The notes under the pieces are model-generated. The model saw only the letters and a list, made by a program, of their open reading frames with translations. It ran no database searches and was not told where the DNA came from. From the IMG/VR virus record IMGVR_UViG_2617270967_000019, positions 1-19,199 of that record: 19,199 nucleotides of DNA. One strand, 5' to 3'. The translations under genes and the position numbers were made by a program. This document shows, one piece after another, positions 435 through 19,199 of the stretch. This stretch comes from a virus (lineage: Duplodnaviria > Heunggongvirae > Uroviricota > Caudoviricetes). Position 1 is the first letter of the stretch. Each line of letters opens with the position of its first letter.

Positions 435-444
435 CCAATGCATG

Positions 445-3847: not shown

Positions 3848-4204
3848 TGTTGGCTCCGTTTATCCGTTAAAAGGGATATCAGTTAAGTTATCCCGTGCAG
3901 GGTATAAGCCATTGTCGAGACCACTCATTGAATGGCCTCTGCAATAACCGATGTCTTTCCATCAGTCCGCCACAACAAAGAATCTTTTTTGCCATAAGGC
4001 AGGAGGTTCATCTTTCAGTGGCTGCCAGTGTTATTTCCCCACTTACTGGCTTGGGTTGTTTCGTGGTACTGCCGTAACTGGTTGCCAAGAATAAATTCCG
4101 GTTTCATTATCAAGCCCACCCGTAGATGGGCTTTGTAATGGATAGCCGTTGCTCAGTTCTCGTAATGCTTTGATTTTTCCGATAACGCAGTTTTGCGTTT
4201 GCCA

Positions 4205-4726
4205 TCAGCACGCGATATCGAGAGTCAACTGCAGTTGCTCGCGCCAGTACTCAACATTTGCTTCAATAACCGGCTTATCCCATCGCCAGCGAGCCATCTC
4301 TCTTGCCCCATTGCTGGCTTTTGATTTCCGGTCATCGCGAATGCGACATGCTTGCTCATATTTCTGCTGCTCAGTCAGTTCACCGCGAAGCAGACTATCA
4401 ATGTGCAGGTCGCACCACACAGCAAAACGAGCATCACACCAACGGGCAAATGCAACTGAAAGTTTTGGATGTAGCCACGTACCACCACCCCTGTCCTTTC
4501 GTGCCTTGCTGGTTTTTACATACCTCGATTGTGAGGGATGTAAAATTTGAGATTCTTTCCCGGTCAACGCTTCGTCTAAAGCACGAACGTATTCAAGCGT
4601 TTCTGCCAAACGCATCCAGTTATCAATGCGTTTTCCAAATCTCTCAGCAACACCTGTGACGTTGATCCAACCATCAGTGTTGAAACTGACAATTTCACCT
4701 TTGTAATTAAGTGGCACGATATTCAT
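4205..4726 (-). CDS. KilA-N domain protein
   Basis: 173 aa; N-terminus MNIVPLNYKGEIVSFNTDGWINVTGVAERFGKRIDNWMRLAETLEY and the later WLHPKLSVAFARWCDARFAVW block match the KilA-N (APSES-like) DNA-binding domain pattern. Confidence 0.55.
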   Translation of the reverse strand: MNIVPLNYKGEIVSFNTDGWINVTGVAERFGKRIDNWMRLAETLEYVRALDEALTGKESQILHPSQSRYVKTSKARKDRGGGTWLHPKLSVAFARWCDARFAVWCDLHIDSLLRGELTEQQKYEQACRIRDDRKSKASNGAREMARWRWDKPVIEANVEYWREQLQLTLDIAC

Positions 4727-4873
4727 AACGTTTACCTACCATTTGAAATGAACCTTTGCCGCATAGGAAACCAGCCCACCGAGGCTCGCCAGCACTAACT
4801 GGTATCCTCAAAGGCCCATTCCAAAGGGGCAGGTTCGGTGTAAAAAACATGCGTTGCGGTACGCATTTATTGC

Positions 4874-4895
4874 AAAAAGCCCCGCATCGCGAGGC
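4874..4895 (-). terminator. Rho-independent terminator downstream of Rz
   Basis: On the minus strand GCCTCGC-GAT-GCGGGGC (7-bp stem including one G-U pair) followed by TTTTT (top-strand A-run 4874-4878). Confidence 0.5.
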
Positions 4896-4927
4896 TCATT
4901 AAATTGACTTTGTGATTTGCAAAAAAA

Positions 4928-5386
4928 TTATTTCAGGCATTGCGTCCTGATGTATTCCTGCAGGTAGTTAACCTGCGCGGTTATCTTGTCGATTCCACTT
5001 CGGAGACGGTAATAATTGAGTTCAGCATCTGCTGTAAGTCTTGGGCTTTCTCCATCGCCCATGCTGCTGGCTCCGGTCGTTGACTTTGCACAGGTGGCGG
5101 CGACTTGCAGGCGCTTACGACCAGCAGAAACATCAGCACGGAGACTTTCGATAGTCGCGTTAGCATCAGCAAGCTCCTTTGTATATCTGGCATCGAGTTC
5201 TGCTACATCACGTTGACGCTTCCGCATGTCAGCGATGGTGGCGTTCGCCTTCTCCAGTTCACTGGCCTTGTTATCGCGCTGCTCTTTGTAGGCGATTGCG
5301 TTATCACGGTAATGATTGACCGCCCACGACAGGCAGACGATGATGCAGATAACCAGAGCGGAGATAATCGCGGTTAACCGACTCAT
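4928..5386 (-). CDS. Rz: Rz i-spanin
   Basis: Starts [31 protein letters not shown], recognised as lambda Rz family (N-terminal TMD then coiled-coil periplasmic domain). The ORF track extends the frame upstream to 5515 but the RBS-preceded ATG is at 5386. Confidence 0.85.
4981..5166 (-). CDS. Rz1: Rz1 o-spanin lipoprotein, embedded in Rz in the +1 frame
   Basis: Embedded ORF; signal plus lipobox [20 protein letters not shown] followed by a Pro-rich segment [16 protein letters not shown], as in lambda Rz1. Confidence 0.75.
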
Positions 5387-5474
5387 GACATCAACACCCC
5401 AACGGCCAGAAACCACGGCCACGCATCGTTGCCATTCAATGCGAGCAACGCTGCCATGAAAAAGCAAATCATGC

Positions 5475-5978
5475 TCATTGTTGCCCCCACAAACAGACTT
5501 CACGCTCAATCTCACGACGGGTCATCAGCCCTTTCCATTGCTTACCGCCAGCGTATGTCCAGCGCCGTAGCTGATCACATGCGCCCTTGATATCGCCCTG
5601 GTTTATTTTGCGAAGAAGCGTCGATGTTCTGAAATTGCCTGTGCCCACGTTATAGACGAACGAGTAAAGAGCGCCGCGCGTTGTTTCCGGTATATCGACT
5701 TTGATGTACGGGTTAATTTGTCTGGCGACCGTGGCAAGGTCTTTATTCAGGAGGGCTTTGCATTCTGCTTCGGTATACGTTTTACCGAGCATGATGTCTT
5801 TTCCGGTGTGTCCGTGGCATACAGTCCATACACCAACAATATCTTTGTATGGTATGTAGCTGACACCTTCCAGACCATCGTTACCACTCGGTCCAGTGAT
5901 TAACACAGATGCTATAGCAATAGCCCCGCCACTTATCGCCGCTATTACGCTATTTCGTAGTGCCGGTGACATTGCCAT
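5475..5978 (-). CDS. R: SAR (signal-anchor-release) endolysin, phage-21 R-like lysozyme
   Basis: 167 aa; N-terminal Gly/Ala-rich SAR domain [19 protein letters not shown], then a catalytic region recognised as the phage 21 / DLP12 R21 family ([27 protein letters not shown]...). GAGGA RBS upstream of the ATG at 5978. Confidence 0.85.
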
Positions 5979-6153
5979 TCAATCTGTCCTCGCGCTCTTT
6001 GCGCTTGTAGTACCAGTTGATGCCAAATGTGCCGACAGTACAAAGAATACCAATGATGACAGCCCAGTCATTCAGGGAGAGAATGCCACCCATCGCAGTC
6101 AGTCCTCCGAAGCTGTAACTGAACCATTCTCTGATTTTGTCCATACGGTACAT
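5950..6153 (-). CDS. Holin with dual-start (antiholin/holin) motif, two TMDs, possible pinholin
   Basis: 67 aa; MYRMDK with ATGs at 6153 and 6144 (Met-Tyr-Arg-Met dual-start). Two hydrophobic segments ([13 protein letters not shown], weakly hydrophobic and Gly-rich; [20 protein letters not shown]) and a charged C-tail. Upstream inverted repeat cccctcaatgaagggg precedes the starts. 3' end overlaps the endolysin start. Not lambda S and not the S21/EssD sequence as I recall them. Confidence 0.7.
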
Positions 6154-6397
6154 GCTCTACCCCTTCATTGAGGGGATTTGCTCTATTTAATTAGGAATAA
6201 GGTCGATTACTGATAGAACAAATCCAGGCTAGTGTGTTTAGTAATCAGATTTGTTCGTGACCGATATGCACGGGCAAAACGGCAGGAGGTTGTTAGCGCA
6301 ACTTCTTGCCACCCGCTTTCACGAAGGTCATGTGTAGAAGGCCGCAGCGTAACTATCACTGATGAATTCAGGACAGCCAGTGGCTACGGCTCAGTTA

Positions 6398-6473
6398 TGG
6401 TGCTGGTTAACGGACTTGAACCGCTACCCATTCGCTTACAAGGCGACTGCTCTACCATTGGAGCTAAACCAGC
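6398..6473 (-). tRNA. tRNA, anticodon UGU (Thr) by manual folding
   Basis: Minus-strand 76-nt cloverleaf GCTGGTT-TA-GCTC-CAATGGTA-GAGC-A-GTCGC-CTTGTAA-GCGAA-TGGGT-AGCGG-TTCAAGT-CCGTT-AACCAGC-A-CCA. Perfect 7-bp acceptor stem, 4-bp D stem with GG in the loop, T loop TTCAAGT, encoded CCA; one mismatch at the top of the anticodon stem. Confidence 0.6.
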
Positions 6474-6478
6474 ATATT

Positions 6479-6552
6479 TGGCGGGACAGCGTGGACTCGA
6501 ACCACGATAAGAAGGTTAACAGCCTTCCGTAATGACCTTATACGACTGACCC
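6479..6552 (-). tRNA. tRNA-like, anticodon GUU (Asn-type), atypical D-arm (possible pseudo-tRNA)
   Basis: Minus-strand GGGTCAG-T-CGTA-TAAGGTCAT-TACG-GAAGG-CTGTTAA-CCTTC-TTAT-CGTGG-TTCGAGT-CCACG-CTGTCCC-G-CCA (74 nt). Anticodon loop and T loop match E. coli tRNA-Asn; one acceptor mismatch and short junctions around the D arm. Confidence 0.45.
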
Positions 6553-6745
6553 AAATAAAAAATCCCGAAACCGTTATGCAGGCTCTAACTATTACCTGCG
6601 AACTGTTTCGGGATTGCATTTTACAGACCTCTCAGCCTGCGATGGTTGGAGTTCCAGACGATACGTCGAAGTGACCAACTAGGCGGAATCGGTAGTAAGC
6701 GCCGCCTCTTTTTATCTCACTACCACAACGAGCGAATTAACCCAT
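6553..6745 (-). ncRNA. pR'-initiated short late leader RNA (lambda 6S RNA equivalent) ending at tR'
   Basis: Minus-strand sequence from ATGGGTTAATTCGCTCGTTGTGGTAGTGAG... to the hairpin CCCGAAAC...GTTTCGGG plus ATTTTTTAT, recognised as the lambda pR'-tR' transcript. TSS placement is approximate. Confidence 0.6.
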
Positions 6746-6790
6746 CGTTGGGTCAAATTTACCCAACTTTATTCAAAAAGTCAATATCAT
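6746..6790 (-). promoter_or_regulatory. Late promoter pR' with Q-utilisation (qut) site
   Basis: Minus strand TTGACT (6784-6779), about 17-bp spacer, TAAATT (6761-6756), immediately downstream of Q; matches the lambda pR' arrangement. Confidence 0.6.
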
Positions 6791-6826
6791 GCCGTTAATA
6801 TGTTGCCATCCGTGGCAATCATGCTG

Positions 6827-7450
6827 CTAACGTGTGACCGCATTCAAGATATTGTCTGCGATTGACTCTTCCTTGTGGCATTGCACCACCAGAGCGTCAT
6901 ACAGCGGCTTAACAGTGCGTGACCAGGTGGGTTGAGTAAGGTTTGGGATTAGCATCGTTACAGCGCGATATGCGGCGCTTGCTGGAATCCTTGAATAGCC
7001 GACACCTTTGCATCTTCCGCACTCTTTCTCAACAACTCTCCCCCACTGCTCTGTTTTTGCTATATCAACCGCGCGGCCTGTACCGTGGCAATCTCTGCAT
7101 CTTGCCCCCGGCGTCGCGGCACTACGGCAATAATCCGCATAAGCGAATGTTGCGAGCACTTGCAGCACCTTTGCCTTAGTATTTCCTTCGAGCTTTGCCA
7201 CACCACGGTATTTCCCCGATACCTTGTGTGCAAATTGCATCAGATAGTTGATAGCCTTTTGTTTGTCGTTCTGGCTGAGTTCATGCTTACCGCAGAATGC
7301 AGCCATTCCGAATCCGGCTTGTGATTGCGCCATCCCCATAGCAGCCATCACATCAGTACCGGAAAGAGAGTCAGAAGCCGTGGCCCGTGGTGAGTCGCTC
7401 ATCATCGGGCTTTTTGGCGAATGAAATTTAGCTACGCTTTCGAGTCTCAT
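6827..7450 (-). CDS. Q: Late antiterminator Q (lambda-type)
   Basis: 207-aa translation MRLESVAKFHSPKSPMMSDSPRATASDSLSG... recognised as lambda Q over its full length. Confidence 0.95.
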   Translation of the reverse strand: MRLESVAKFHSPKSPMMSDSPRATASDSLSGTDVMAAMGMAQSQAGFGMAAFCGKHELSQNDKQKAINYLMQFAHKVSGKYRGVAKLEGNTKAKVLQVLATFAYADYCRSAATPGARCRDCHGTGRAVDIAKTEQWGRVVEKECGRCKGVGYSRIPASAAYRAVTMLIPNLTQPTWSRTVKPLYDALVVQCHKEESIADNILNAVTR

Positions 7451-7637
7451 CGTCTTCCCCCCTCTTGCCCTGTTTGACCATCAGGACGCCGTTAACTATT
7501 ACGTGACGCTCGCCTTTTCTGTCTCGGTTGTACTTGAGCACTGTTCCTCTTGCGCAGGAAAGCATCCTCGCCACTTCGGTCTGATTGCCTCGTGCCTGTA
7601 TAAGCAGTTCTGGTATCGTTTGAATTGTGGCGTTCAT
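7428..7637 (-). CDS. ninH: NinH-like small HTH protein
   Basis: 69 aa; ...TIPELLIQARGNQTEVARMLSCARGTVLKYNRD... resembles lambda NinH as I recall it. Overlaps the Q start by 23 nt. Confidence 0.6.
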   Translation of the reverse strand: MNATIQTIPELLIQARGNQTEVARMLSCARGTVLKYNRDRKGERHVIVNGVLMVKQGKRGEDDETRKRS

Positions 7638-7996
7638 ACGTTCTCCAGTTCGGTGATTTTTATTCCAAGCCGTCCGCCTGGTACTTTCACACCACGAATT
7701 ACGCGAATGTCATCGAATTGCTCGTCGTCTTCCGCAAATCCGGCGTGGATAAGGGAGTCGAGTAAACCTTTCAGGATGTTATCGAGGTCGCGGCGGCGGG
7801 AGTCTGGAACGTCTGCGATGACTTTGATGCGGAGTCGTGATTTGGTGAAAATGTCTAACTTAAGTTGGCGGATGATTTGCTGAACGTCTTTTCGGTATTT
7901 CTGGCCTTTATCGCTGATGTAGTATTGGCTTCCTCGTCTTCGCCAGTAGGTATTCACCGACGGCGGGTATGGAAGCACAAACTGATATTCGTTCAT
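7634..7996 (-). CDS. rusA: RusA-family Holliday junction resolvase
   Basis: 120 aa; matches the RusA pattern (LPYPPSVNTYWRRRG..., DRRRRDLDN..., GGRLGIKITE) of E. coli DLP12 RusA. Confidence 0.85.
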   Translation of the reverse strand: MNEYQFVLPYPPSVNTYWRRRGSQYYISDKGQKYRKDVQQIIRQLKLDIFTKSRLRIKVIADVPDSRRRDLDNILKGLLDSLIHAGFAEDDEQFDDIRVIRGVKVPGGRLGIKITELENV

Positions 7997-8283
7997 GGCT
8001 TAATCTTTCCCTCCTTCAGCAGTATCGCCTGCGTCCTGATCACGCCTTCGAGGTGGTAAAGTCTGGCGTCTTTGTTGTCGAGGTTATGGGTGCGTCGGTC
8101 GATTTCATCGTGACACGCGCTACAAGCCCATGCACCGATCAGGTCGTCAGGCTTCATTCCCGCTCCGCAAATTCCAGCCATCCGGTAATGTGCCAGAACT
8201 GTAGTTTCAGGATTGCCATTGCATATGCCGTAAATACGTACCTGGCATTCTCTGCCGCGCGCTTCTTTGCGTAGGTTAGCCAT
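7993..8283 (-). CDS. YbcO-like (DUF1364) Cys-rich putative nuclease
   Basis: 96 aa; RGRECQVRIYGICNGNPETTVLAHYR...ACSACHDEIDRR resembles E. coli DLP12 YbcO. ATGA start/stop overlap with rusA. Confidence 0.6.
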   Translation of the reverse strand: MANLRKEARGRECQVRIYGICNGNPETTVLAHYRMAGICGAGMKPDDLIGAWACSACHDEIDRRTHNLDNKDARLYHLEGVIRTQAILLKEGKIKP

Positions 8284-8552
8284 TATGGTTCACTCCAGTA
8301 ATTCTCAATTGCAGCAGCCATTCTCTGCATCCACTCAGCCAGCTTTAACGCGGCTTCTCTTTCAGAACCACATTTAGGGAAATCCTTCATTTCCATGCTG
8401 GCCTTATATGTTCTGAATGCCAGGTCTCCGGTAATAATCAGCTCCTGATCAAGCACCGAGCGTTTATTCCGGTGTTGAACGTAATAGACAGATTCAGTCC
8501 GCATTTCTTCTCTGTCTTTTTTGAAGGAAATAAGCTCAGAGAAATCACTCAT
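8283..8552 (-). CDS. Hypothetical nin-region protein
   Basis: 89-aa ORF, ATG at 8552 overlapping the upstream gene stop, stop overlapping the ybcO-like start; no family recognised. Confidence 0.45.
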   Translation of the reverse strand: MSDFSELISFKKDREEMRTESVYYVQHRNKRSVLDQELIITGDLAFRTYKASMEMKDFPKCGSEREAALKLAEWMQRMAAAIENYWSEP

Positions 8553-8721
8553 CGTCTTCTTCCTCGTACATTGAGCTATTCGGATCGCTCATCAGTTCTG
8601 CGCAGCAGTGCTCACACACGTGAACTTCCAGCACATGCAGCTTCTGACCGCAGTTAGCGCACGTTAATACCCGCTCGACGCTTTCTTTCAGGTATTGAAG
8701 GGATTGAGATGGGCTAAGCAT
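8545..8721 (-). CDS. NinF-like small Cys-rich (zinc-ribbon-like) protein
   Basis: 58 aa (below the ORF-track cutoff), [58 protein letters not shown]; C-x2-C ... C-x2-C-C arrangement with an acidic tail. Start and stop overlap neighbours. Confidence 0.5.
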
Positions 8722-9055
8722 TATTGGCCTCCTGCATCAGGAGAAAGACAATCATGGCGGCGCGGAGAGGTCTGGTATCAAATATTGGGCTTACGCCTTT
8801 TGCATCCACACACCATTCAGTTAACTGGTCTAAGATAGAAATCCTGTATTTCTCAATAATCGGCCATGAAGCGCTCGGATCATTGCAGTAGTCAGGCAAA
8901 TGATTTAATGGCTCAAAAGTTGTATAAGCATTTCCGTAATACCATTTGTTGGTGTTATTCCCTGATGTTTCCGGTTTACTTGCCCAAAGGCCTTTAAAAA
9001 TTATGTCTCCTACCATTCTGTTAATTTCAAAATCACTTAACTGTGAATAATCCAT
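8714..9055 (-). CDS. Hypothetical nin-region protein (possibly NinX/DUF2591-like)
   Basis: 113 aa from the ATG at 9055, which has GAGG 8 nt upstream; the ORF track extends to 9097. Family assignment is a weak recollection only. Confidence 0.45.
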
Positions 9056-9081
9056 TGTCATTTCCTCGCACGATATCTTAG

Positions 9082-9234
9082 CTACCGGATATCCCACAGG
9101 TGAGCTGTGTAATTGAAGGTTTTTACGTCAGATTCTTTTGGGATTGGCTTGCGTTTATTTCTGGAGCGTTTCGTTGGAAGGTATTTGCAGTTTTCGCAGA
9201 TGATGTCGGTGAAACTTCGTCGCTGTCGCCTCAT
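9082..9234 (-). CDS. Small basic nin-region protein (NinD/NinE-like)
   Basis: 50 aa from the ATG at 9234 ([50 protein letters not shown]); ATGA overlap with the upstream methylase stop. Confidence 0.5.
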
Positions 9235-9759
9235 GCCGCCCTCCTGACGCCCTGCCCGATCGCCATCAATGCCGCTTTGGATACGGTAGTAAACATCCGT
9301 CGAGGACTGATGAACGGTCGCCAAATCAGCAGCATGGAGCCTTTGCTGTTTCCCTTCTTCTCCAGCCCTGTCGATGGTTCGATAAAATTAATCCGTCCAT
9401 CAGTGATAATGCGAACTTCGTCGACACTCTCCAGAGCCTTGCTGAACCATCCGACTGACATATCCTCTGGCACAAGCATAACTACCGTCTGTCGCTGTTG
9501 TATGCACTGCTCAGCGGCTTTTTCCACCCACGGCCTGATATTGCTGTACGGTGGGTTATTCCAGATTGCACCGTGGCTTATCCACTCAGAATTTAGCGCG
9601 TCGTCGGCCTCAGTTAACCAGTGAGCGCACAGAGCATTTTTTGTCGCTCGCTGCCGAATCCAGCCAGAATCCAAACTCAATATCCAGTGCATCAAAAAGC
9701 CAAAGCGGCGTTTGCCAGCAGTCCTTGTCGTGTGCTGGCGTATTTGATTTGATAGTCAT
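9231..9759 (-). pseudogene. Phage Dam-type DNA N6-adenine methyltransferase, split by a frameshift at a 6-nt homopolymer
   Basis: N-terminal frame (ATG 9759, ...CWQTPLWLFDALDIEFGFWLDSAASDKK) stops at 9610; C-terminal frame (9231-9695) carries IWNNPPYSN, the (D/N)PPY motif. The frames switch at the T6 run at 9637-9642 (A6 in the coding sense); one fewer A would give a continuous protein of about 175 aa. ATGA overlap with ninB. Confidence 0.6.
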
Positions 9760-10196
9760 GCAGCCCGATCTCCCCATCGCGCTTTCCATTCGAGAGCCAG
9801 TCGCGCTTCGTCTGACCACTTAACGCCACGCTCTGTACCGAATGCCTGTATAAGCTCTAATAGCTCCGCAAATTCGTTTACACGCATCCTGCTGGTTGAC
9901 TGGCCTATTACCACAAAGCCATTCCCGGCAAGGTTAGGAACAACATCCTGCTGCTTTAATGCTGCGGTAAACACACACTTCCAGCTTTCTGCATCCAGCC
10001 AGCGACCATGCCATTCAACCTGACGAGAGACGTCACCAAGGCAAGCCCAAAGCTTTCGATTCTGGTCTAAGCTGCGGTTGCGTTCCTGAATGGTTACTAC
10101 GATTGGTTTGGTTGGGTCTGGAAGAATTTGCTGTACCGCGTGAATAGCGTTTTGCTGATGTGCTGGAGATCGAATTTCAAAGGTTAGTTTTTTCAT
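9756..10196 (-). CDS. ninB: NinB (Orf) recombination mediator
   Basis: 146 aa from MKKLTFEIRSPAHQQNAIHAVQQILPDPTKPIVVTIQERNRSLDQNRKLWACLGDV..., recognised as lambda NinB. Confidence 0.9.
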   Translation of the reverse strand: MKKLTFEIRSPAHQQNAIHAVQQILPDPTKPIVVTIQERNRSLDQNRKLWACLGDVSRQVEWHGRWLDAESWKCVFTAALKQQDVVPNLAGNGFVVIGQSTSRMRVNEFAELLELIQAFGTERGVKWSDEARLALEWKARWGDRAA

Positions 10197-10211
10197 GACT
10201 TCCCTCTCCCC

Positions 10212-10244
10212 CAAATAAAAAGGCCTGCGATTACCAGCAGGCCT
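10212..10244 (-). terminator. Rho-independent terminator between ren and ninB (lambda tR2 position)
   Basis: Minus strand AGGCCTGC-TGGTAATC-GCAGGCCT (8-bp stem) followed by TTTTTATTT. Confidence 0.5.
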
Positions 10245-10269
10245 GTTATTAGCTCAGTGATGTAGATGG

Positions 10270-10560
10270 TCATCTTTTAACTCCATATACTGCCAATACC
10301 CGTTTCATCGCGGCACTCTGGCGACACTCCTTAAAAATCAGGTTCGTGCTCATCTTTCCTTCCCGTTCTTCCCTGGTAGCAAATCGGTAATACACCGTTC
10401 GCCAGACCTTACCTTCGATAACCAGAAGACCTGCCCGTGCCATTTTAGCCGCGGCCTGATTTATGCTGGTTACTGTTGCGCCTGTTAGCGCGGCAACGTC
10501 CGGCGCACAGAAGCTATTATGCGTCCCCAGGTAATGAATAATTGCCTCTTTGCCCGTCAT
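10270..10560 (-). CDS. ren: Ren (Rex exclusion resistance) protein
   Basis: 96 aa, MTGKEAIIHYLGTHNSFCAPDVAALTGATVTSINQAAAKMARAGLLVIEGK..., recognised as lambda Ren. Confidence 0.9.
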   Translation of the reverse strand: MTGKEAIIHYLGTHNSFCAPDVAALTGATVTSINQAAAKMARAGLLVIEGKVWRTVYYRFATREEREGKMSTNLIFKECRQSAAMKRVLAVYGVKR

Positions 10561-11258
10561 ACACTTGCTCCTTTCAGTCCGAACTTAGCTTTGATTTCTG
10601 CGATCTTCGCCAGAGCCTGTGCACGATTTAGAGGTCTACCGCCCATGACAGGAAGTTGTTTTACTGGTTCAGGGATCGCCTCACCACGGTTAATTCTCGC
10701 AGTCATATGGACAAGCTCATCTGCGGCCTTACGGCGTAATTCCGCATCAGTAAGCGCATTGGCCCGCATGTTCTGATACAGGTTGGTAACCAGCCAGTAG
10801 TGCGCGTTTGATTTCCACGGATAAGACTCCGCATCCGGATACAGGCCTCGCTTCCGGCAATACTCGTAAACCATATCAACCAGCTCGCTGACGTTTGGCA
10901 GTCCGGCGGTAACGGATGCTTCTTCCCGGCACCATGCAACAAACTGCCCGGGTGATGGCAGAAATGGTCGATTCTGCCGACGGGCTACGCGCATTCCTGC
11001 GTTAACCTGTTCCATCGTGGTGATCCCGTTTTCCCGAAAAGCCAGAACCCACTGGCGACGGATTTCGTTCACTTCGTTCTGGTCACGGTTAGCCAGGCTC
11101 GCCGGGAAAGTTGCCAGTAACTGGCTGAACACACCGTTGATGATCTGCGCTACCTGCTGTACCTGCGGCTTTTCGTCGTACTGTTCCGGCATGTTGTTGG
11201 CGATCCGACGCATCTGCTCACGGTCAAAGTTAACCATCTGTGCGGCGATGTTTTTCAT
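10557..11258 (-). CDS. P: Replication protein P (DnaB helicase loader)
   Basis: 233 aa, MKNIAAQMVNFDREQMRRIANNMPEQYDEKPQVQQVAQIINGVFSQ..., recognised as lambda P. Confidence 0.95.
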   Translation of the reverse strand: MKNIAAQMVNFDREQMRRIANNMPEQYDEKPQVQQVAQIINGVFSQLLATFPASLANRDQNEVNEIRRQWVLAFRENGITTMEQVNAGMRVARRQNRPFLPSPGQFVAWCREEASVTAGLPNVSELVDMVYEYCRKRGLYPDAESYPWKSNAHYWLVTNLYQNMRANALTDAELRRKAADELVHMTARINRGEAIPEPVKQLPVMGGRPLNRAQALAKIAEIKAKFGLKGASV

Positions 11259-12154
11259 AGATCCACCCCGTAAATCCAGTCTGTGTTTGTCAGGTCGAGT
11301 TTTGGTTTGCTGGCTGTCATGCCTGCCTGTTGCTTGTTACGGTTGATTTCGAGTTGGGTCCACTTATCGCGGAGTTTGGCCGGGCTCAGCACGTTACCGG
11401 ACCAGAAGTTGTCCTGGCATGCCCAGCGGAACAGCACGCACATGTCACGGTGGTTACGTCCGTCACGTTCACGCATCAGGCGGATATCGTTAGCCCACCC
11501 AGCAAAATTCGGTTTTCTGGCTGATGGTGCGATAGTCTTCACCATGTCAAACATCCACTCTGCGGCGGTCAGGTCTTCTGCTGTCCCCCACTTGCTGCCG
11601 CTCTGAATTGCAGCATCCGGTTTCACCACAGAAAGGTCGTTTTCTGGCTGGTCAGAGGATTCGCCAGAATTCTCTGACGAATAATCTTTTCTTTTTTCTT
11701 TTGTAATAGTGTCTTTTGTGTCCCCCTGTTTTGAGGGATAGCAATCCCCCAATTTGAGGGATGTTTTATCCCTCGTTTTAGGGGATTTTCCCTCGTTTTG
11801 AGGGATGCACCATTCTGAGATGTTTTTATTTGGTCCAAACATGCCGCCTTGCTGCTTGATAATATTCATTCTGACGAGTTCTAACTTGGCTTCATTGCAC
11901 CGTTTGACGGGTAACTTTGTAATCTCGCTAAGTTGAGAATCGGTGATTCTGTCCATTGGTTTATTCCACCCATAGGTTTTACGCAGAATGGCAAGCAGCA
12001 CTTTAAACTGTCGCTTGGTCAGATCTGCGCCCGAATAAGCCTCAAGCAGCATATTTGATAGTCTGGCGTAACCATCATCGAGATCTGCCACATTACGCTC
12101 CTGTCCGGCAAAGTTACCTCTGCCGAAGTTGAGTATTTTTGCTGTATTTGTCAT
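11255..12154 (-). CDS. O: Replication initiator O
   Basis: 299 aa, MTNTAKILNFGRGNFAGQERNVADLDDGYARLSNMLLEAYSG..., recognised as lambda O; contains the ori iterons. Confidence 0.95.
   Translation of the reverse strand: MTNTAKILNFGRGNFAGQERNVADLDDGYARLSNMLLEAYSGADLTKRQFKVLLAILRKTYGWNKPMDRITDSQLSEITKLPVKRCNEAKLELVRMNIIKQQGGMFGPNKNISEWCIPQNEGKSPKTRDKTSLKLGDCYPSKQGDTKDTITKEKRKDYSSENSGESSDQPENDLSVVKPDAAIQSGSKWGTAEDLTAAEWMFDMVKTIAPSARKPNFAGWANDIRLMRERDGRNHRDMCVLFRWACQDNFWSGNVLSPAKLRDKWTQLEINRNKQQAGMTASKPKLDLTNTDWIYGVDL
11670..11808. repeat. ori-lambda: four O-binding iterons plus adjacent AT-rich region, inside the O gene
   Basis: Top strand 11721-11806 carries four repeats of the pattern (t)cccc/tc...ttttgaggga (tccccctgttttgaggga, tcccccaatttgaggga, tccctcgttttagggga, tccctcgttttgaggga); AT-rich stretch aatctttcttttttcttttgtaatagtgtc at about 11684-11713. 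Confidence 0.8.
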
Positions 12155-12164
12155 AATGACTCCT

Positions 12165-12241
12165 GTTGATAGATCCAGTAATGACCTCAGAACTCCATCT
12201 GGATTTGTTCAGAACGCTCGGTTGCCGCCGGGCGTTTTTTA
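12165..12241 (+). ncRNA. oop: oop antisense RNA (promoter pO upstream)
   Basis: GTTGATAGATCCAGTAATGACCTCAGAACTCCATCTGGATTTGTTCAGAACGCTCGGTTGCCGCCGGGCGTTTTTTATT recognised as lambda oop RNA ending in a hairpin plus U-tract; candidate -10 CATAAT at 12152-12157 and -35 TTGAGT at 12129-12134. Antisense to the cII 3' end. Confidence 0.7.
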
Positions 12242-12480
12242 TTGGTGAGAATCGCAGCAACTTGTCGCGCCAATCGAGCCATGTCGTCGTCAACGACCCC
12301 CCATTCAAGAACAGCAAGCAGCATTGAGAACTTTGGAATCCAGTCCCTCTTCCACCTGCTGATCTGCGACTTATCAACGCCCACAGCTTCCGCTGTCTTC
12401 TCAGTTCCAAGCATTGCGATTTTGTTAAGCAACGCACTCTCGATTCGTAGAGCCTCGTTGCGTTTGTTTGCACGAACCAT
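12187..12480 (-). CDS. cII: Transcriptional activator CII
   Basis: 97 aa from MVRANKRNEALRIESALLNKIAMLGTEKTAEAVGVDKSQISRWKRDWIPKFSMLLAVLEWGVVDDDMARLARQVAAILTNKKRPAATERSEQIQMEF, recognised as lambda CII; the ORF track extends the frame upstream. Confidence 0.95.
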   Translation of the reverse strand: MVRANKRNEALRIESALLNKIAMLGTEKTAEAVGVDKSQISRWKRDWIPKFSMLLAVLEWGVVDDDMARLARQVAAILTNKKRPAATERSEQIQMEF

Positions 12481-12490
12481 ATGTAAGTAT
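12458..12490 (+). promoter_or_regulatory. pRE (CII-activated promoter) with TTGC-N6-TTGC CII-binding repeats
   Basis: TTGCGTTTGTTTGC at 12458-12471 and candidate -10 AAGTAT at 12485-12490, directed toward cI, overlapping the cII start as in lambda. Confidence 0.6.
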
Positions 12491-12591
12491 TTCCTTAGAT
12501 AACAATTGATTGAATGTATGCAAATAAATGCATACACCATAGGTGTGGTTTAATTTGATGCCCTTTTTCAGGGCTGGGATGTGTAAGAGCG
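12490..12591 (-). promoter_or_regulatory. nutR (boxA and boxB) and tR1 region between cro and cII
   Basis: Minus-strand boxA CGCTCTTA (12591-12584) and boxB hairpin GCCCTGAAAAAGGGC (12574-12560), followed by sequence recognised as the lambda tR1 region. Confidence 0.75.
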
Positions 12592-12599
12592 GGAATGTC

Positions 12600-13955
<1,356 letters not shown>

Positions 13956-14005
13956 TCCCCACCTCAATCTCGATAACCAAAAAACAAACTATTTTCCGTT
14001 TAAAA

Positions 14006-14079
14006 ACAATGGAGTTTGTTTTTCATGCCCCTTTCTTACAATATTTCTTGTTTACAACATACAATCTTTTTTGTAATTT
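14006..14079 (+). promoter_or_regulatory. Left operator (three 434-type operators) with candidate pL
   Basis: acaatggagtttgt (14006-14019), acaatatttcttgt (14038-14051), acaatcttttttgt (14061-14074). Candidate -35 TTTACA (14051-14056) and -10 TAATTT (14074-14079) directed toward N; promoter hexamers are tentative. Confidence 0.65.
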
Positions 14080-14119
14080 TAAACCATCAGCAGGACGCAC
14101 TGACCACCATTGAAGGTGA

Positions 14120-14150
14120 TGCTCTTAAAAATTAAGCCCTGAAGAAGGGC
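14120..14150 (+). promoter_or_regulatory. nutL (boxA and boxB)
   Basis: TGCTCTTAAAAATTAA then boxB hairpin GCCCTGAAGAAGGGC (14136-14150), as in lambda nutL. Confidence 0.8.
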
Positions 14151-14308
14151 AGCATTCAAAGCAGAAGGCTTTGGGGTGTGTGATACGAAACGAAGCATTG
14201 GCCGGAAGTGCGAATCCGGATTAGCTGCAAATGAGCCAATCGTGGGGTGTTTTCGTTCAGGACTACGACTCACACACACCACCAAAGCTAACTGACAAGA
14301 GAATCCAG

Positions 14309-14632
14309 ATGGATGCACAAACACGCCGCCGCGAACGTCGCGCAGAGAAACAGGCTCAATGGAAAGCAGCAAATCCCCTGTTGGTTGGGGTAAGCGCAAA
14401 ACCAGTTAACCGCCCTATTCTCTCGCTGAATCGCAAACCGAAATCACGAGTAGAAAGCGCACTGAATCCGATAGACCTTACGGTGCTGGCTGAATACCAC
14501 GAACAGATTGAAAGCAACCTGCAACGTATTGAGCGCAAGAATCTTCGAGTTTGGTATAGCAAGCCAAGTGAGTTCGGTATAACTTGTCAAGGAAGACAAA
14601 AGGTTAAAGGGAAATCCATTCCATTGGCATGA
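14309..14632 (+). CDS. N: Antiterminator N (lambda-type, with several C-terminal substitutions)
   Basis: 107 aa from MDAQTRRRERRAEKQAQWKAANPLLVGVSAKPVNRPILSLNRKPKSRVESALNPIDLTVLAEY..., recognised as lambda N with its Arg-rich motif; the C-terminal third differs at several positions from my recollection of lambda N. The ORF track starts at an upstream codon. Confidence 0.9.
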   Translation: MDAQTRRRERRAEKQAQWKAANPLLVGVSAKPVNRPILSLNRKPKSRVESALNPIDLTVLAEYHEQIESNLQRIERKNLRVWYSKPSEFGITCQGRQKVKGKSIPLA

Positions 14633-14640
14633 GGTACGTA

Positions 14641-14721
14641 ATGAAGAAAATTGATTACAAGTCCATACCAAAACCAATAGACTCAGCATCAGAGCGAAAA
14701 AAAACACAAAAAAGAGGCTGA
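14641..14721 (+). CDS. Possible 26-aa basic peptide immediately downstream of N
   Basis: ATG at 14641 with GAGG 6 nt upstream; MKKIDYKSIPKPIDSASERKKTQKRG. Contains an A8 run (14697-14704) and an A6 run (14708-14713). May be non-coding. Confidence 0.25.
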   Translation: MKKIDYKSIPKPIDSASERKKTQKRG

Positions 14722-14830
14722 AAAATTAGCAAATTATATCAGTTTTATTAGAAACAATGCTCACGGCGATGGCGACAGGAAGTTGCTTTCAGATGCCCGG
14801 ACCCAAGCGTTCAGCATACTTCGTAAGCAG

Positions 14831-15511
14831 ATGCAATATCGTCTTCATCCAGGCTACATAATTGAAATTCGCCCGACTGAAAGACAATTGTTCTTATTAA
14901 ACTCTGTCTTTGACTTTGTAAACGTAGTTGGAGATCTTATCGACAGGTCTGTAGATAAGGCTCCTGATACAAATAGTTTTCTTCTAACAAATAAAGAATA
15001 CTTATATGGTAAATTTGGTATAAACGGATGGCAAAAATATGTACGATTCTTACGTGCATTCGTTGATGCGAATAAAAATTCCGACATGATTTATACATAT
15101 TTGCCTGGTGGTAATAATTGTACGCTTTCGGCAGACAATAGAATATTCATACCTATACTTGGTCTTGGGCTGATTAATGCAGTAAATGAAAGAGATGTTA
15201 TAATTGTTAAGCAGTGGCGAAAGCATGAGGGATATAGATATCTGCCATGCTTTGATATATTAAAAATACAGAATAAATTCTATGTAAAAATTAAATATAA
15301 AGAAGATGTTTTCTTCCTCAGAAAAAACAAAGATCTTTTACAAGAACTTTCTGGGACAATAGATGTCATCGTAGGTTCTAGGTTTATAAAAGAACTGAAA
15401 GAAAGCAGGTCTTTCTCTCGTGTAGAGATAAGCGAGTCAGAGTTATGGGGTATATCAAATAATCCTGTAAACCACGCTCACCAACGAAATCCAAACAAAA
15501 AGTGGTCATAA
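14831..15511 (+). CDS. AT-rich accessory protein (moron) in the N-ea10 interval, function unknown
   Basis: First in-frame ATG at 14831 (226 aa); the frame is open from 14681 and the ORF track uses TTG at 14783 (242 aa). Markedly AT-rich versus flanking N and ea10 (by inspection). No TM segment or motif recognised. Followed directly by a hairpin terminator. Confidence 0.6.
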   Translation: MQYRLHPGYIIEIRPTERQLFLLNSVFDFVNVVGDLIDRSVDKAPDTNSFLLTNKEYLYGKFGINGWQKYVRFLRAFVDANKNSDMIYTYLPGGNNCTLSADNRIFIPILGLGLINAVNERDVIIVKQWRKHEGYRYLPCFDILKIQNKFYVKIKYKEDVFFLRKNKDLLQELSGTIDVIVGSRFIKELKESRSFSRVEISESELWGISNNPVNHAHQRNPNKKWS

Positions 15512-15534
15512 CCCGCTCAGGCGGGTTTCATTTT
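15512..15534 (+). terminator. Hairpin terminator immediately after the accessory gene
   Basis: CCCGC-TCAG-GCGGG followed by TTTCATTTT, starting 1 nt after the TAA at 15509-15511. Confidence 0.45.
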
Positions 15535-15653
15535 CACGCAAACAACAGAATAAACACTGCACTGTGTATTCATTCCAACGAGTGAATACACGGAGCAATG
15601 TCGCTCGTAACTAAACAGGAGTCGACTTGTTCTGATTATTGGAAATCTTCTTT

Positions 15654-15681
15654 GCCCTCCAGTGTGAGGGCGATTTTTTAT
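15654..15681 (+). terminator. Rho-independent terminator upstream of ea10
   Basis: GCCCTC-CAGTGT-GAGGGC followed by GATTTTTTAT. Confidence 0.5.
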
Positions 15682-15699
15682 CTGTGAGGATATGAACAG

Positions 15700-16068
15700 A
15701 TGTCAAACATCAAAAAATACATCATTGATTACGACTGGAAAGCATCAATAGAAATTGAAATCGACCATGACGTAATGACAGAGGAAAAACTTCACCAGAT
15801 TAATAATTTCTGGTCAGACTCTGAATACCGACTCAATAAACACGGCTCTGTATTAAATGCTGTATTAATCATGCTGGCGCAACATGCTCTGCTTATAGCA
15901 ATTTCAAGCGACTTAAATGCATATGGTGTTGTGTGTGAGTTCGACTGGAATGATGGAAATGGTCAGGAAGGATGGCCTCCAATGGATGGTAGCGAAGGAA
16001 TAAGAATTACCGATATCGATACATCAGGAATATTTGATCCAGATGATATGACTATCAAAGCCGCCTGA
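15700..16068 (+). CDS. ea10: Ea10 (single-strand DNA-binding-like early protein)
   Basis: 122 aa, MSNIKKYIIDYDWKASIEIEIDHDVMTEEKLHQINNFWSDSEYRLNKHG..., recognised as lambda Ea10; GAGGA RBS. Confidence 0.9.
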   Translation: MSNIKKYIIDYDWKASIEIEIDHDVMTEEKLHQINNFWSDSEYRLNKHGSVLNAVLIMLAQHALLIAISSDLNAYGVVCEFDWNDGNGQEGWPPMDGSEGIRITDIDTSGIFDPDDMTIKAA

Positions 16069-16093
16069 GCGCGGCGTTACCGCATACCAATAA

Positions 16094-16114
16094 CGCTTCA
16101 CTCGAGGCGTTTTT
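16094..16114 (+). terminator. Possible terminator hairpin between ea10 and cIII
   Basis: CGCTTC-ACTC-GAGGCG (6-bp stem with one G-U pair) followed by TTTTT. Confidence 0.4.
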
Positions 16115-16140
16115 CGTTATGTATAAATAAGGAGCACACC

Positions 16141-16305
16141 ATGCAATATGCCATTGCAGGGTGGCCTGTTGCTGGCTGCCCTTCCGAATCTTTACTTGAA
16201 CGAATCACCCGTAAATTACGTGACGGATGGAAACGCCTTATCGACATACTTAATCAGCCAGGAGTCCCAAAAAATGGATCAAACACTTATGGCTATCCAG
16301 ACTAA
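16141..16305 (+). CDS. cIII: CIII (FtsH inhibitor)
   Basis: 54 aa, [54 protein letters not shown], recognised as lambda CIII; AAGGAG RBS. Confidence 0.9.
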   Translation: MQYAIAGWPVAGCPSESLLERITRKLRDGWKRLIDILNQPGVPKNGSNTYGYPD

Positions 16306-16438
16306 ATTCACTATCGCCACTTTTATTGGCGATGAAAAGATGTTTCGTGAGGCCGTCGACGCTTATAAAAAATGGATATTAATACTGAAACTGAGATCAA
16401 GCAAAAGCATTCACTACCCCCCTTCCCTGTTTTCCTAA
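16274..16438 (+). CDS. kil: Kil (FtsZ-targeting host-killing protein), 54 codons here
   Basis: [47 protein letters not shown]... recognised as lambda Kil; overlaps the cIII 3' end and the gam 5' end. The frame runs 7 codons beyond where I recall lambda kil ending. Confidence 0.75.
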
Positions 16439-16788
16439 TCAGCCCGGCATTTCGCGGACGATATTTTCACAGCTATTTCAGGAGTTCAGCCATGAACGCT
16501 TATTACATTCAGGATCGTCTTGAGGCTCAGAGCTGGGCGCGTCACTACCAGCAGATCGCCCGTGAAGAGAAAGAGGCAGAACTGGCAGACGACATGGAAA
16601 AAGGCCTGCCCCAGCACCTGTTTGAATCGCTATGCATCGATCATTTGCAACGCCACGGGGCCAGCAAAAAAGCCATTACCCGTGCGTTTGATGACGATGT
16701 TGAGTTTCAGGAGCGCATGGCAGAACACATCCGGTACATGGTTGAAACCATTGCTCACCATCAGGTTGATATTGATTCAGAGGTATAA
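16372..16788 (+). CDS. gam: Gam (RecBCD inhibitor)
   Basis: 138 aa, [61 protein letters not shown]..., recognised as lambda Gam. Confidence 0.95.
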
Positions 16789-16793
16789 AACGG

Positions 16794-17579
16794 ATGAGTA
16801 CAGCACTCGCAACGCTGGCAGGGAAGCTGGCTGAACGTGTCGGCATGGATTCTGTCGACCCACAGGAACTGATCACCACTCTTCGCCAGACGGCATTTAA
16901 AGGTGATGCCAGCGATGCGCAGTTCATCGCATTGTTGATCGTCGCCAACCAGTACGGCCTTAATCCGTGGACGAAAGAAATTTACGCCTTCCCTGATAAG
17001 CAGAACGGCATCGTTCCGGTGGTGGGCGTTGATGGCTGGTCCCGTATCATCAATGAAAACCAGCAGTTTGATGGCATGGACTTTGAGCAGGACAATGAAT
17101 CCTGCACATGCCGGATTTACCGCAAGGACCGTAATCATCCGATCTGCGTTACCGAGTGGATGGATGAATGCCGCCGCGAACCATTCAAAACCCGCGAAGG
17201 CAGAGAAATCACGGGGCCGTGGCAGTCGCATCCCAAACGGATGTTGCGTCATAAAGCCATGATTCAGTGTGCCCGTCTGGCCTTCGGATTTGCTGGTATC
17301 TATGACAAGGATGAAGCCGAGCGCATTGTCGAAAATACCGCATACACTGCAGAACGTCAGCCGGAACGCGACATCACTCCGGTTAACGATGAAACCATGC
17401 AGGAGATTAACACTCTGCTGATTGCCCTGGATAAAACATGGGATGACGACTTATTGCCGCTCTGTTCCCAGATATTTCGCCGCGACATTCGCGCATCGTC
17501 AGAACTGACACAGGCCGAAGCAGTGAAAGCTCTTGGATTCCTGAAACAGAAAGCCTCTGAGCAGAAGGTGGCTGCATGA
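16794..17579 (+). CDS. bet: Bet (Red-beta single-strand annealing protein)
   Basis: 261 aa, [72 protein letters not shown]..., recognised as lambda Bet over its full length. Confidence 0.97.
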
Positions 17580-18256
17580 CACCGGACATTATCCTGCAGC
17601 GTACCGGGATCGACGTGAGAGCTGTCGAACAGGGAGATGATGCGTGGAACAAATTACGACTCGGCGTCATCACGGCTTCAGAAGTTCACAATGTGATAGC
17701 AAAACCCCGCTCCGGTAAAAAGTGGCCTGACATGAAAATGTCCTACTTTCACACCCTGCTGGCTGAGATTTGTACCGGTGTGGCTCCGGAAGTTAACGCT
17801 AAGGCGCTGGCCTGGGGAAAAAAGTACGAGAATGACGCCAGAGCCCTGTTTGAGTTTACTTCCGGCGTGAATGTTACTGAATCCCCGATCATCTATCGCG
17901 ACGAAAGTATGCGCACCGCCTGCTCTCCCGATGGTTTATGCAGTGACGGCAACGGCCTTGAGCTGAAATGCCCGTTTACCTCCCGGGATTTCATGAAGTT
18001 CCGGCTCGGTGGTTTCGAGGCCATAAAGTCGGCTTACATGGCCCAGGTGCAGTACAGCATGTGGGTGACGCGAAAAGATGCCTGGTACTTTGCCAACTAT
18101 GACCCACGAATGAAGCGTGAAGGCCTGCATTATGTCGTGGTTGAGCGGGATGAAAATTACATGGCGAGTTTTGACGAGATGGTGCCGGAGTTCATCGAAA
18201 AAATGGACGAGGCACTGGCTGAAATTGGTTTTGTATTTGGGGAGCAATGGCGATGA
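17576..18256 (+). CDS. exo: Exo (Red-alpha 5'-3' exonuclease)
   Basis: 226 aa, [68 protein letters not shown]..., recognised as lambda Exo; ATGA overlap with bet. Confidence 0.97.
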
Positions 18257-18435
18257 CGCATCCTCACGATAATATCCGGGTAGGCGCGATCACTTTCGTC
18301 TACTCCGTTACAAAGCGAGGCTGGGTATTTCCCGGCCTTTCTGTTACCCGAAATCCCCTGAAAGCACAGCGGCTGGCTGAGGAGATAAATAATAAACGGG
18401 GAGCTGTATGCACAAAGCATCTCCTGTTGAGTTAA
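18253..18435 (+). CDS. Orf60a-like small protein
   Basis: 60 aa from the ATG at 18253 overlapping the exo stop; matches the position and size of lambda orf60a. Confidence 0.65.
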
Positions 18436-18599
18436 GAACGAGTATCGAGATGGCACATAGCCTTGCTCAAATTGGAATCAGGTTTGTGCCAATACCAGTA
18501 GAAACAGACGAAGAATTTCATACGTTAGCCACATCCCTTTCACAAAAACTGGAAATGATGGTGGCGAAAGCAGAAGCAGATGAGAGAGACCAGGTATGA
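18408..18599 (+). CDS. Orf63-like small protein
   Basis: 63 aa, [63 protein letters not shown]; matches the position and size of lambda orf63. Confidence 0.65.
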   Translation: MHKASPVELRTSIEMAHSLAQIGIRFVPIPVETDEEFHTLATSLSQKLEMMVAKAEADERDQV

Positions 18600-18679
18600 C
18601 AACCACTGAATGCATTTTTCTGGCAGCGGGCTTCATATTCTGTGTGCTTATGCTTGCCGACATGGGGCTTGTTCAGTGA
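18596..18679 (+). CDS. Possible 27-aa hydrophobic single-TM peptide
   Basis: ATG at 18596 overlaps the orf63 stop (ATGA); MTTTECIFLAAGFIFCVLMLADMGLVQ. Below the ORF-track cutoff. Confidence 0.3.
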   Translation: MTTTECIFLAAGFIFCVLMLADMGLVQ

Positions 18680-18891
18680 CACCTCAGCAGGAAAACGCCC
18701 TTCGCAGCATTGCCCGTCAGGCTAATTCTGAAATCAAAAAAGCCAGACAGCAGTTTCCGGATAAAAACGTCGATGACATTTGCCGTAGCGTACTGAAGAA
18801 GCACCGCGAAACGGTAACGCTGATGGGATTCACACCGACTCATTTAAGTCTAGCAATCGGCATGTTAAACGGCGTTTTTAAGGAACGGTGA
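18610..18891 (+). CDS. Hypothetical protein in the orf61/ea22 region, start uncertain
   Basis: 93-aa ORF in a different frame from the hydrophobic peptide; an internal GTG at 18676 would give about 71 aa. Followed by a terminator hairpin. Confidence 0.4.
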   Translation: MHFSGSGLHILCAYACRHGACSVTPQQENALRSIARQANSEIKKARQQFPDKNVDDICRSVLKKHRETVTLMGFTPTHLSLAIGMLNGVFKER

Positions 18892-18913
18892 ACATGAAAA
18901 GCAAAATCATCAG

Positions 18914-18935
18914 GGAGCTACAGGCTCCTTTTTTA
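18914..18935 (+). terminator. Rho-independent terminator
   Basis: GGAGC-TACAG-GCTCC followed by TTTTTTATT. Confidence 0.45.
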
Positions 18936-18989
18936 TTATTCGCATTCACCCTCAAGCGTATTAACCAACAATTCAGGGATTAATGAAAG

Positions 18990-19199
18990 ATGGCAGACAT
19001 CATTGATTCAGCATCAGAAATTGAAGAATTACAGCGCAACACAGCAATAAAAATGCGCCGCCTGAACCACCAGGCTATATCTGCCACTCATTGTTGTGAG
19101 TGTGGCGATCCGATAGATGAACGAAGACGCCTGGCCGTTCAGGGTTGTCGGACTTGTGCAAGTTGCCAGGAGGATCTGGAACTTATCAGTAAACAGAGA
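18990..19199 (+). CDS. TraR/DksA-family C4 zinc-finger protein (lambda orf73-like), 3' end beyond the window
   Basis: MADIIDSASEIEELQRNTAIKMRRLNHQAISATHCCECGDPIDERRRLAVQGCRTCASCQEDLELISKQR; C-x2-C-x17-C-x2-C spacing typical of TraR/DksA zinc fingers. No stop codon before the window end. Confidence 0.7.
   Translation, partial: MADIIDSASEIEELQRNTAIKMRRLNHQAISATHCCECGDPIDERRRLAVQGCRTCASCQEDLELISKQR

Follow-up and report, generated by a model that had tools for sequence, protein, structure and literature searches.

Nun is the textbook phage protein that freezes RNA polymerase on the DNA of a rival; it is expressed from the repressed prophage and, to our knowledge, only a single small protein of this kind, with a single target, has been known so far. 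The Nun protein of phage HK022 excludes lambda and lambda imm434 through boxB (PMC4124055). In the cryo-electron microscopy complex only Nun residues 87-109 were ordered; they pass the zipper, lid and rudder of beta-prime to enter the active-site cleft, tying the polymerase to the nucleic acids, and contact or mutant sites have been mapped at N97, H98, H100, R102, K106, K107 and W108, with N103 as the no-contact control (PMC5386594).

Here, we have analyzed a stretch of 19,199 nucleotides (positions 1 to 19,199 of IMG/VR virus record IMGVR_UViG_2617270967_000019; hereafter the window), a lambdoid prophage with its pL operon on the + strand. In the gap between N and ea10, where lambda carries sieB, orf28 and ral, the window has a gene whose product ends in the Nun peptide, the long-Nun gene. 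We read it, with moderate confidence, as a frameshifted copy of the 'long Nun' of phage 434, that is, a Nun-type arrest and exclusion factor with a different targeting body that would be expressed in the early pL operon. Long Nun shares with Nun of HK022 and HK75 (6ALG chain N; phrog_5632) the C-terminal 14 residues, all mapped functional residues and the pL-proximal position. However, Nun is a small protein of 109-112 amino acids with no folded middle, whereas long Nun has 289 amino acids, including a core of ∼150 residues and a helical hairpin. If our reading is correct, the arrest peptide would be a portable warhead, and long Nun would offer a second, differently aimed system for studying the delivery of arrest factors to elongation complexes. 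Its predicted TnpB/Cas12-like body, with distant relatives in BREX and other islands, would in addition extend the derivatives of TnpB by a nuclease-free branch.

Identity of the gene and its Nun tail

Megablast of positions 14600-15720 revealed 97.4% DNA identity to phage 434, which has one 870-nt gene there, CPT_434_48 (UMO75312.1; OL657226). Its 289-amino-acid product is annotated as 'Nun C-terminal peptide-containing protein', and the ribosome-binding site of the gene is annotated as well. The same stretch was found in 83 of 5426 complete Escherichia coli genomes, with identities of up to 99.6% (strain H6) and a 289-amino-acid product, which in the two records inspected was annotated as a hypothetical protein (WP_001383906.1). 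CPT_434_48, WP_001383906.1 and phrog_12139 are the same gene with the same neighbors, from which the window copy differs in carrying eight A (A8) instead of seven (A7) in a homopolymer tract. The true start codon is an ATG located 8 nt past the N stop codon, and a GAGG ribosome-binding site (14631-14634) overlaps that stop codon. The translation repaired by removal of one A was 96% identical to protein cluster P0001. In addition, phrog_12139 matched both pieces of the window copy, the 242-residue open reading frame (ORF) on its positions 48-289 (E 2e-169) and a 30-residue 5' piece on its positions 1-25 (E 2.4e-8), which confirmed the split of one gene.

These results changed the picture given by an earlier, sequence-only reading of the window, which had described a + strand ORF of 226-242 amino acids between N and ea10, without a transmembrane segment or recognizable catalytic motif, as an unrecognized protein with no match to lambda proteins. 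The ORF and its slot were correctly placed, but the ORF is not complete, being the 3' remnant of the frameshifted 870-nt gene. A transmembrane segment was indeed absent (top 19-residue Kyte-Doolittle mean 1.38), and BLASTP against lambda SieB and Ral gave E values of 6.0 and 6.4, respectively; a motif had been missed, however, in the last 14 residues, which are those of HK022 Nun. The protein is uncharacterized, phrog_12139 being listed with 'unknown function', but not unseen, since CPT_434_48 had already been annotated. It should be noted that the gene is thus already deposited, as the phage 434 gene, and annotated for its Nun-like tail; what is new here is the TnpB-like body, the selection on the tail, the larger family in which another tail occurs and the disruption of the copy in the window. 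With lambda SieB and Ral, long Nun has in common only the N-ea10 slot and an accessory, non-essential character. It differs from them in sequence, with no similarity, in size and most likely in mechanism, and sieB is annotated on the opposite strand.

The family has very few members. Five clusters were obtained from 5.8 billion, and two more full-length members with the Nun tail came from 1.84 billion representatives searched with a profile. Phage 434 was the sole carrier found by tblastn across 50,697 phage records, a scan with one representative genome per species gave no relative, and neither the protein nor its relatives had a match in Pfam, NCBIfam or PADLOC. In one further protein, P0009 (96 amino acids), the initial 23 residues of Bet are fused to the final 73 of long Nun, which implies a rearranged or chimeric assembly somewhere. 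Lambda imm434, a common laboratory hybrid, matched only the ea10-proximal end of the region and therefore carries lambda DNA here, which may be why the gene escaped study.

Over its last 14 residues, long Nun is identical to both HK022 and HK75 Nun at their C-terminus and, among solved structures, the sole sequence match with E <0.001 was Nun (6ALG chain N, residues 83-109, E 9e-4). We aligned eight family tails, from proteins whose identity falls to 36-48% (36% to the E. coli form for the most distant one). The residues V, N, H, A, H, R, K, K and W, which correspond to Nun V96, N97, H98, A99, H100, R102, K106, K107 and W108, were invariant; the equivalents of Nun Q101, N103, P104 and N105 varied among the family tails. 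The Nun-type arrest peptide, as defined by the mapped residues N97, H98, H100, R102, K106, K107 and W108, was present and invariant in all family members examined. In the window, DNA identity to nun of HK022 and HK75 starts within the tail codons, and the DNA 3' of the gene is ∼95% identical to theirs. A recent recombination scar was ruled out as the origin of the tail, as divergent relatives (L005, L006, L039 and L040) keep it through different synonymous codons and have unrelated 3' flanks. On the basis of these synonymous changes and unrelated flanks, the tail is under purifying selection.

The tail also occurs outside the long-Nun family. A search with a 44-residue tail query, in which 21 candidates were scored, showed that the Nun tail (VNHAHQR[ND/S]P[NKR]KKW) ends at least the short proteins P0054-P0060, which have 37-77 amino acids and unrelated N-termini, with Proteus, Providencia, Raoultella and Pantoea named in their source records. 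Given its presence on unrelated short proteins, the tail behaves as a portable module. Some of P0054-P0060 may be fragments or have mis-called starts. One of them, P0059, which comes from a read-archive assembly, contains an arginine-rich stretch (SRNRRREERKAE).

Predicted body and distant relatives

In TnpB and Cas12 proteins, a lobe consisting of WED and REC domains grips the DNA duplex of the transposon-associated motif (TAM) or protospacer-adjacent motif (PAM) as well as part of the guide RNA. The WED domain of TnpB comprises residues 1-12 and 117-176 and forms a beta-barrel with one helix, the REC helices being an insertion after strand 1; between them, the two domains clamp the TAM DNA duplex (PMC10097598).

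An AlphaFold model of long Nun, built on a 30-sequence alignment, had a predicted local distance difference test (pLDDT) score of 76.7 overall and of 76-94 over residues 11-220. It begins with two long helices (residues 16-38 and 43-65), a region that most of the distant relatives lack. The core follows with a strand (71-77), three helices (80-145) and a five-stranded sheet with one flanking helix (152-220), and the C-terminus is a long, low-confidence helix and then the disordered tail. This predicted order of strand 1, inserted helices and sheet plus helix agrees with the published WED/REC topology of TnpB. In three structure searches, the best matches were TnpB/Cas12-type proteins. The top four hits of Foldseek in the PDB were Cas12l, n, p and f, none of them significant (E 0.05-0.06); among viral models the top hit was a mimivirus 'Transposase' (E 8e-4, probability 0.97), which is taken to be a TnpB/Fanzor-type protein. 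Thus, the AlphaFold model and structural search that had been proposed with the sequence-only reading gave a TnpB/Cas12-like predicted core, with PDB matches below significance.

At the sequence level, a profile search of PDB sequences did not retrieve TnpB. The sole hhalign match placed residues 71-96 (GYIIEIRPTERQLFLLNSVFDFVNVV) on TnpB residues 2-27, over 26 columns and in structural register; it was weak (E 0.0085, probability 4.7%). Long Nun resembles TnpB, Cas12, Fanzor and the nuclease-dead TldR proteins in a predicted WED plus REC arrangement with a helical domain inserted after strand 1, and the N-terminal strand-Pro-helix motif aligns in register. However, sequence similarity to TnpB, Cas12 and Fanzor was not significant and no guide RNA was evident. 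A RuvC domain with its D-E-D triad was also absent, only ∼70 residues following the core, predicted to be one helix and the disordered tail. TldRs retain an inactive RuvC, whereas long Nun has neither RuvC nor TNB lobe and ends in a polymerase-binding peptide. The protein is strongly basic, its net charge being +14 overall and +9 for residues 1-70. We read the core as a predicted nucleic-acid-recognition module that is TnpB-like at the level of the fold rather than an established homolog of TnpB.

The conserved 190-nt spacer 3' of the gene was considered as a source of guide RNA. There was no support for this candidate: the spacer is common to HK022 and mostly to lambda, both of which lack the core, and Rfam found nothing in the 3' flank, although no search was aimed directly at a guide RNA. 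In the BREX-embedded relative described below, just 34 nt separate the gene from the next one.

According to the reading that we favor, the intact 289-residue protein would consist of four parts: a basic N-terminal helical hairpin (∼16-65), the core (∼71-220), a long helix with a flexible linker, and the Nun tail VNHAHQRNPNKKWS. Through its body and basic N-terminus, the protein would be anchored at a specific feature of DNA or nascent RNA. Its tail would then enter the active-site cleft of an E. coli RNA polymerase elongating nearby and block translocation as Nun does, and a competing phage or mobile element would be excluded. A lambda-type boxB is an unlikely target because the phage itself uses lambda N and nutL.

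Profile search also revealed ∼20 distant proteins of 213-473 amino acids with 13-26% identity. They share residues ∼74-225 and a conserved C-terminal-proximal stretch, which reads ES+SFSRVEIS in the Nun-tailed proteins. Both the first 70 residues and the Nun tail are missing from them, and they end in a conserved ...G(R/K)xVxGGLPSLGKRR. Such distant core relatives lie at loci L046/L047 (9001-9831), L045 (9001-9828), L048 and L049. One distant relative is located in a BREX locus, between a 1153-amino-acid gene (after brxB) and a PglX-type methyltransferase; another follows a 2142-amino-acid helicase and a UvrD-family gene. Others are found in islands that also encode integrases, a RES toxin and a SIR2 protein, and one from Burkholderia has ordinary chromosomal neighbors. 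Their association with defense islands is suggestive. The family with the GGLPSLGKRR tail has no model in Pfam, NCBIfam or PADLOC, and a literature search for the GGLPSLGK motif returned nothing relevant.

The existence of relatives that keep the core and the ES+SFSRVEIS stretch but end in GGLPSLGKRR, together with their occurrence in BREX and other genomic islands, raises the question of whether the tail is the business end at all. Long Nun could instead be a nucleic-acid-binding accessory or defense protein that acts through its TnpB-like body, as the differently tailed distant relatives presumably do, with the Nun peptide adding little. This explanation appears improbable, as the tail is invariant at the functionally mapped residues down to 36% identity and across synonymous changes, whereas a passenger would drift. 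A broader proposal accommodates both tails: the core may represent an unrecognized family in which the TnpB recognition lobe stands alone, with WED and REC but no nuclease, and is followed by a short, basic effector peptide at the C-terminus. Such proteins would be plugs that sequence directs to polymerases or other nucleic-acid machines, with the Nun tail in the lambdoid branch and GGLPSLGKRR in the branch of BREX and integrase islands. We put this forward tentatively and regard it as rather unlikely. If it were true, the targeting half of TnpB would have been taken over for transcription-arrest immunity with interchangeable tails, and the Nun peptide would be deliverable by a reader of DNA or RNA sequence other than an arginine-rich motif.

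Expression and disruption of the gene

The layout of the region shows a gene that is co-transcribed with N from pL, since the 8-nt gap between the two genes leaves no space for a terminator and no terminator-like site was found from pL to the stop codon of the long-Nun gene. The first terminator-like site on the + strand from pL is the hairpin at that stop codon (-11.8 kcal/mol, z -4.3), which overlaps its last two bases and is followed by TTTCATTTTC. Phage 434 has a weaker hairpin here (-6.9) and HK75 has none (-1.4), both being decayed versions; two divergent relatives (L039 and L040) have clean hairpin and U-run terminators at the same position after the stop codon. The strongest terminator-like site common to phage 434 and HK75 lies 140 nt downstream of the gene, in a stretch that lambda shares. 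A promoter scan gave 6 promoter-like sites where 6.0 were expected from shuffled sequences, so a separate promoter was unsupported. In L005 and L039, as in the window and phage 434, the gene directly follows an N-like gene. L006 and L040 have no N-like gene in between: past the repressor gene, the first ORF called or listed is the long-Nun gene, and nun holds that position in HK75.

Several statements of the sequence-only reading can be judged from these data. Early expression of the slot from pL agrees with the co-transcription with N, and the AT-richness relative to N and ea10 was borne out: the GC content is 35.0% for 14641-15511, 33.3% for the core and 29.6% at third codon positions, against values of 48.1% (N), 38.8% (ea10) and 46.9% (window). 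The hairpin exists, but overlaps the stop codon instead of beginning 1 nt after it. The architecture of a moron therefore holds for the terminator-like hairpin and not for a promoter of its own, given the 8-nt distance from N and promoter-like sites no commoner than in shuffles. The proposal of a new exclusion factor is now better grounded, with the RNA-polymerase-arrest peptide of Nun at the end of the protein, although the copy in the window is probably inactive (see below).

On this layout, the gene product should be made together with N from the earliest pL transcripts. This timing, the lambda-type nutL boxB of the phage and the position of the gene, which in every lambdoid relative examined is the slot of N or nun, are what would be expected if the protein were a self-regulator, arresting or terminating early transcription of its own phage, for example to time or limit pL and pR. 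We assign this alternative little probability. The gene is sporadic (phage 434 alone among the phage records, 83 of the complete E. coli genomes), which argues against an essential regulator, lambda has unrelated genes in the same slot, and the gene has been disrupted repeatedly. In addition, HK022 nun mutants grow and lysogenize normally (PMC4124055).

Expression from pL early in infection would also suit a role in host take-over or counter-defense, in which the protein arrests host RNA polymerase on host or defense genes; when Nun is overproduced, its arrest of transcription is toxic to E. coli even if nut sites are absent (PMC4124055). Lambdoid phages, however, need the host RNA polymerase throughout their cycle, and although the present data do not separate such a role from exclusion, we consider it very improbable.

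The window copy itself is broken at the A8 tract. Frame 1 is out of register past codon 20 and closes at 14719-14721 after 26 codons, the remainder being in frame 2, so that any product of the downstream ORF would lack the first 48 residues. Re-initiation at the internal starts was judged unlikely, as no well-placed ribosome-binding site serves them: AGGA lies just 2 nt before TTG 14783, and no Shine-Dalgarno sequence precedes ATG 14831. Because of the frameshift and the poor internal starts, the window copy is probably non-functional, if its sequence is correct.

Among 31 fetched close copies that span the site, 28 have A7, two (L034 and L035) have A8, and one of another lineage (L033) has A6. 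L034 and L035 are 100% identical to the window over 1.9 kb yet differ from it elsewhere. All 83 complete E. coli genomes have A7 and none has A8. Compared with the closest relatives, L027 (over 4.7 kb) and L002 (over 4.1 kb), A8 is the sole indel. A8 thus has one of two origins: a frameshift that was inherited, at a tract prone to slippage, or a miscall of the homopolymer that recurs in draft assemblies. Other disruptions were found in three E. coli-derived viral contigs (L036, L037 (1-345) and L038), which have an IS1 insertion near codon 107.

It is possible, although rather doubtful, that the frameshift is not a true inactivation, A8 being either a sequencing error or a slippage-prone switch at which some full-length protein is made by transcriptional slippage. 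Runs of A are slippage sites, the tract has six, seven or eight A depending on the lineage, and all three variants come from draft-derived viral contigs, with no variation in the 83 complete genomes. On the other hand, efficient slippage usually requires runs of at least nine, and the window, L034 and L035 share A8 despite 19-26 mismatches over 8 kb. That A8 is the lone indel relative to L027 and L002 also argues against a sequence riddled with homopolymer errors.

Returning to the interpretation of long Nun as a Nun-type exclusion factor with a different targeting body, a number of points weigh against it. Unlike Nun, long Nun has no detectable arginine-rich boxB motif: BLASTP aligned only residues 240-289 with Nun, and the N-terminus is a basic, Lys-rich predicted helix without such a motif. 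Nun H93 and R94, which contact upstream DNA, correspond to N273 and N274 here and are not conserved. Again unlike nun, the gene is housed in a phage with lambda N and nut sites. Judging from its nutL, the window phage itself uses boxB, the RNA site targeted by HK022 Nun, and a simple Nun-like action on lambda nut sites would be self-harming for a phage that co-expresses the protein with lambda N. The likeness to TnpB comes from a predicted model based on a 30-sequence alignment and has weak support at the sequence level; a run on a 4-sequence alignment was poor (pLDDT 46.8) and was replaced by the 30-sequence one, and the Pfam OrfB/TnpB models gave no match. Moreover, the window copy is frameshifted, and the gene has been disrupted independently several times, through the A8/A6 tract and IS1. 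This repeated disruption (A6 in L033, IS1 in L036-L038) indicates that the gene is dispensable and possibly costly. Finally, our literature search found no study of the gene, and the genome announcement of phage 434 does not discuss it.

Features of the window

The coordinates of the long-Nun gene, its parts and other features of the window are shown in Table 1.

Table 1. Location of the long-Nun gene, its parts and other features in the window
Feature	Position	Strand	Remarks
Whole long-Nun gene	14641-15511	+	289 codons after removing one A; +1 frameshift in the window
5' fragment	14641-14721	+	ATG, 26 codons, TGA; start of the basic N-terminal helix
A8 homopolymer (frameshift site)	14697-14704	+	A7 in intact alleles, A6 in L033
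ORF of the sequence-only reading	14783-15511	+	242 amino acids from TTG 14783, 226 from ATG 14831; residues 49-289 of the full protein
Core domain	14852-15301	+	Residues ∼71-220; predicted WED + REC recognition lobe fold of TnpB/Cas12
Tail codons	15467-15508	+	Encode VNHAHQRNPNKKWS, identical to Nun residues 96-109
Hairpin	Stem 15510-15527, site 15510-15536	+	AACCCGC-TCAG-GCGGGTT, then TTTCATTTT
Perfect 14-bp inverted repeat	15562-15593	+	-18.8 kcal/mol, z -6.1; spacer common to lambda, HK022 and phage 434
Strong intrinsic-terminator-like site	15652-15681	+	GCCCTC...GAGGGC + T6; annotated terminator in phage 434 and HK75
N, lambda-type	14309-14632	+	Directly 5' of the long-Nun gene, same transcript
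nutL boxB, lambda-type	14136-14150	+	GCCCTGAAGAAGGGC
ea10	15700-16068		Followed by cIII, kil, gam and bet
Phage 434 repressor gene	12922-13554		
hex-like gene	Ends 13955		After the repressor gene
Q antiterminator gene	6830-7450		
Lysozyme gene	5478-5978		
Rz	4931-5515		
KilA-N gene	4208-4726		
Tail-fiber assembly gene	2951-3412	-	Directly after the lysis and KilA-N genes
Acyltransferase-3 gene	1888-2958	+	
GH43/GH32-like ORF (weak)	579-1862	+	Both Pfam scores under the curated cut-offs

The prophage appears to be defective, as the lysis genes abut the tail-fiber assembly gene with no head or tail genes between them (window positions 1-6000). Two tRNA genes, Thr (TGT) and Asn (GTT), are located on the - strand at 6398-6552, just downstream of Q and ahead of the lysis genes. 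A G-run at 12895-12897, in the operator/promoter region between cro and cI, differs in length by 1-3 bases from close relatives including phage 434, and L032 has a 12-nt in-frame deletion relative to window positions 13724-13735, within the hex-like gene downstream of cI. The cIII thermoregulator RNA element of lambda is complete at 16128-16186 (Rfam RF01804, 88.5 bits).

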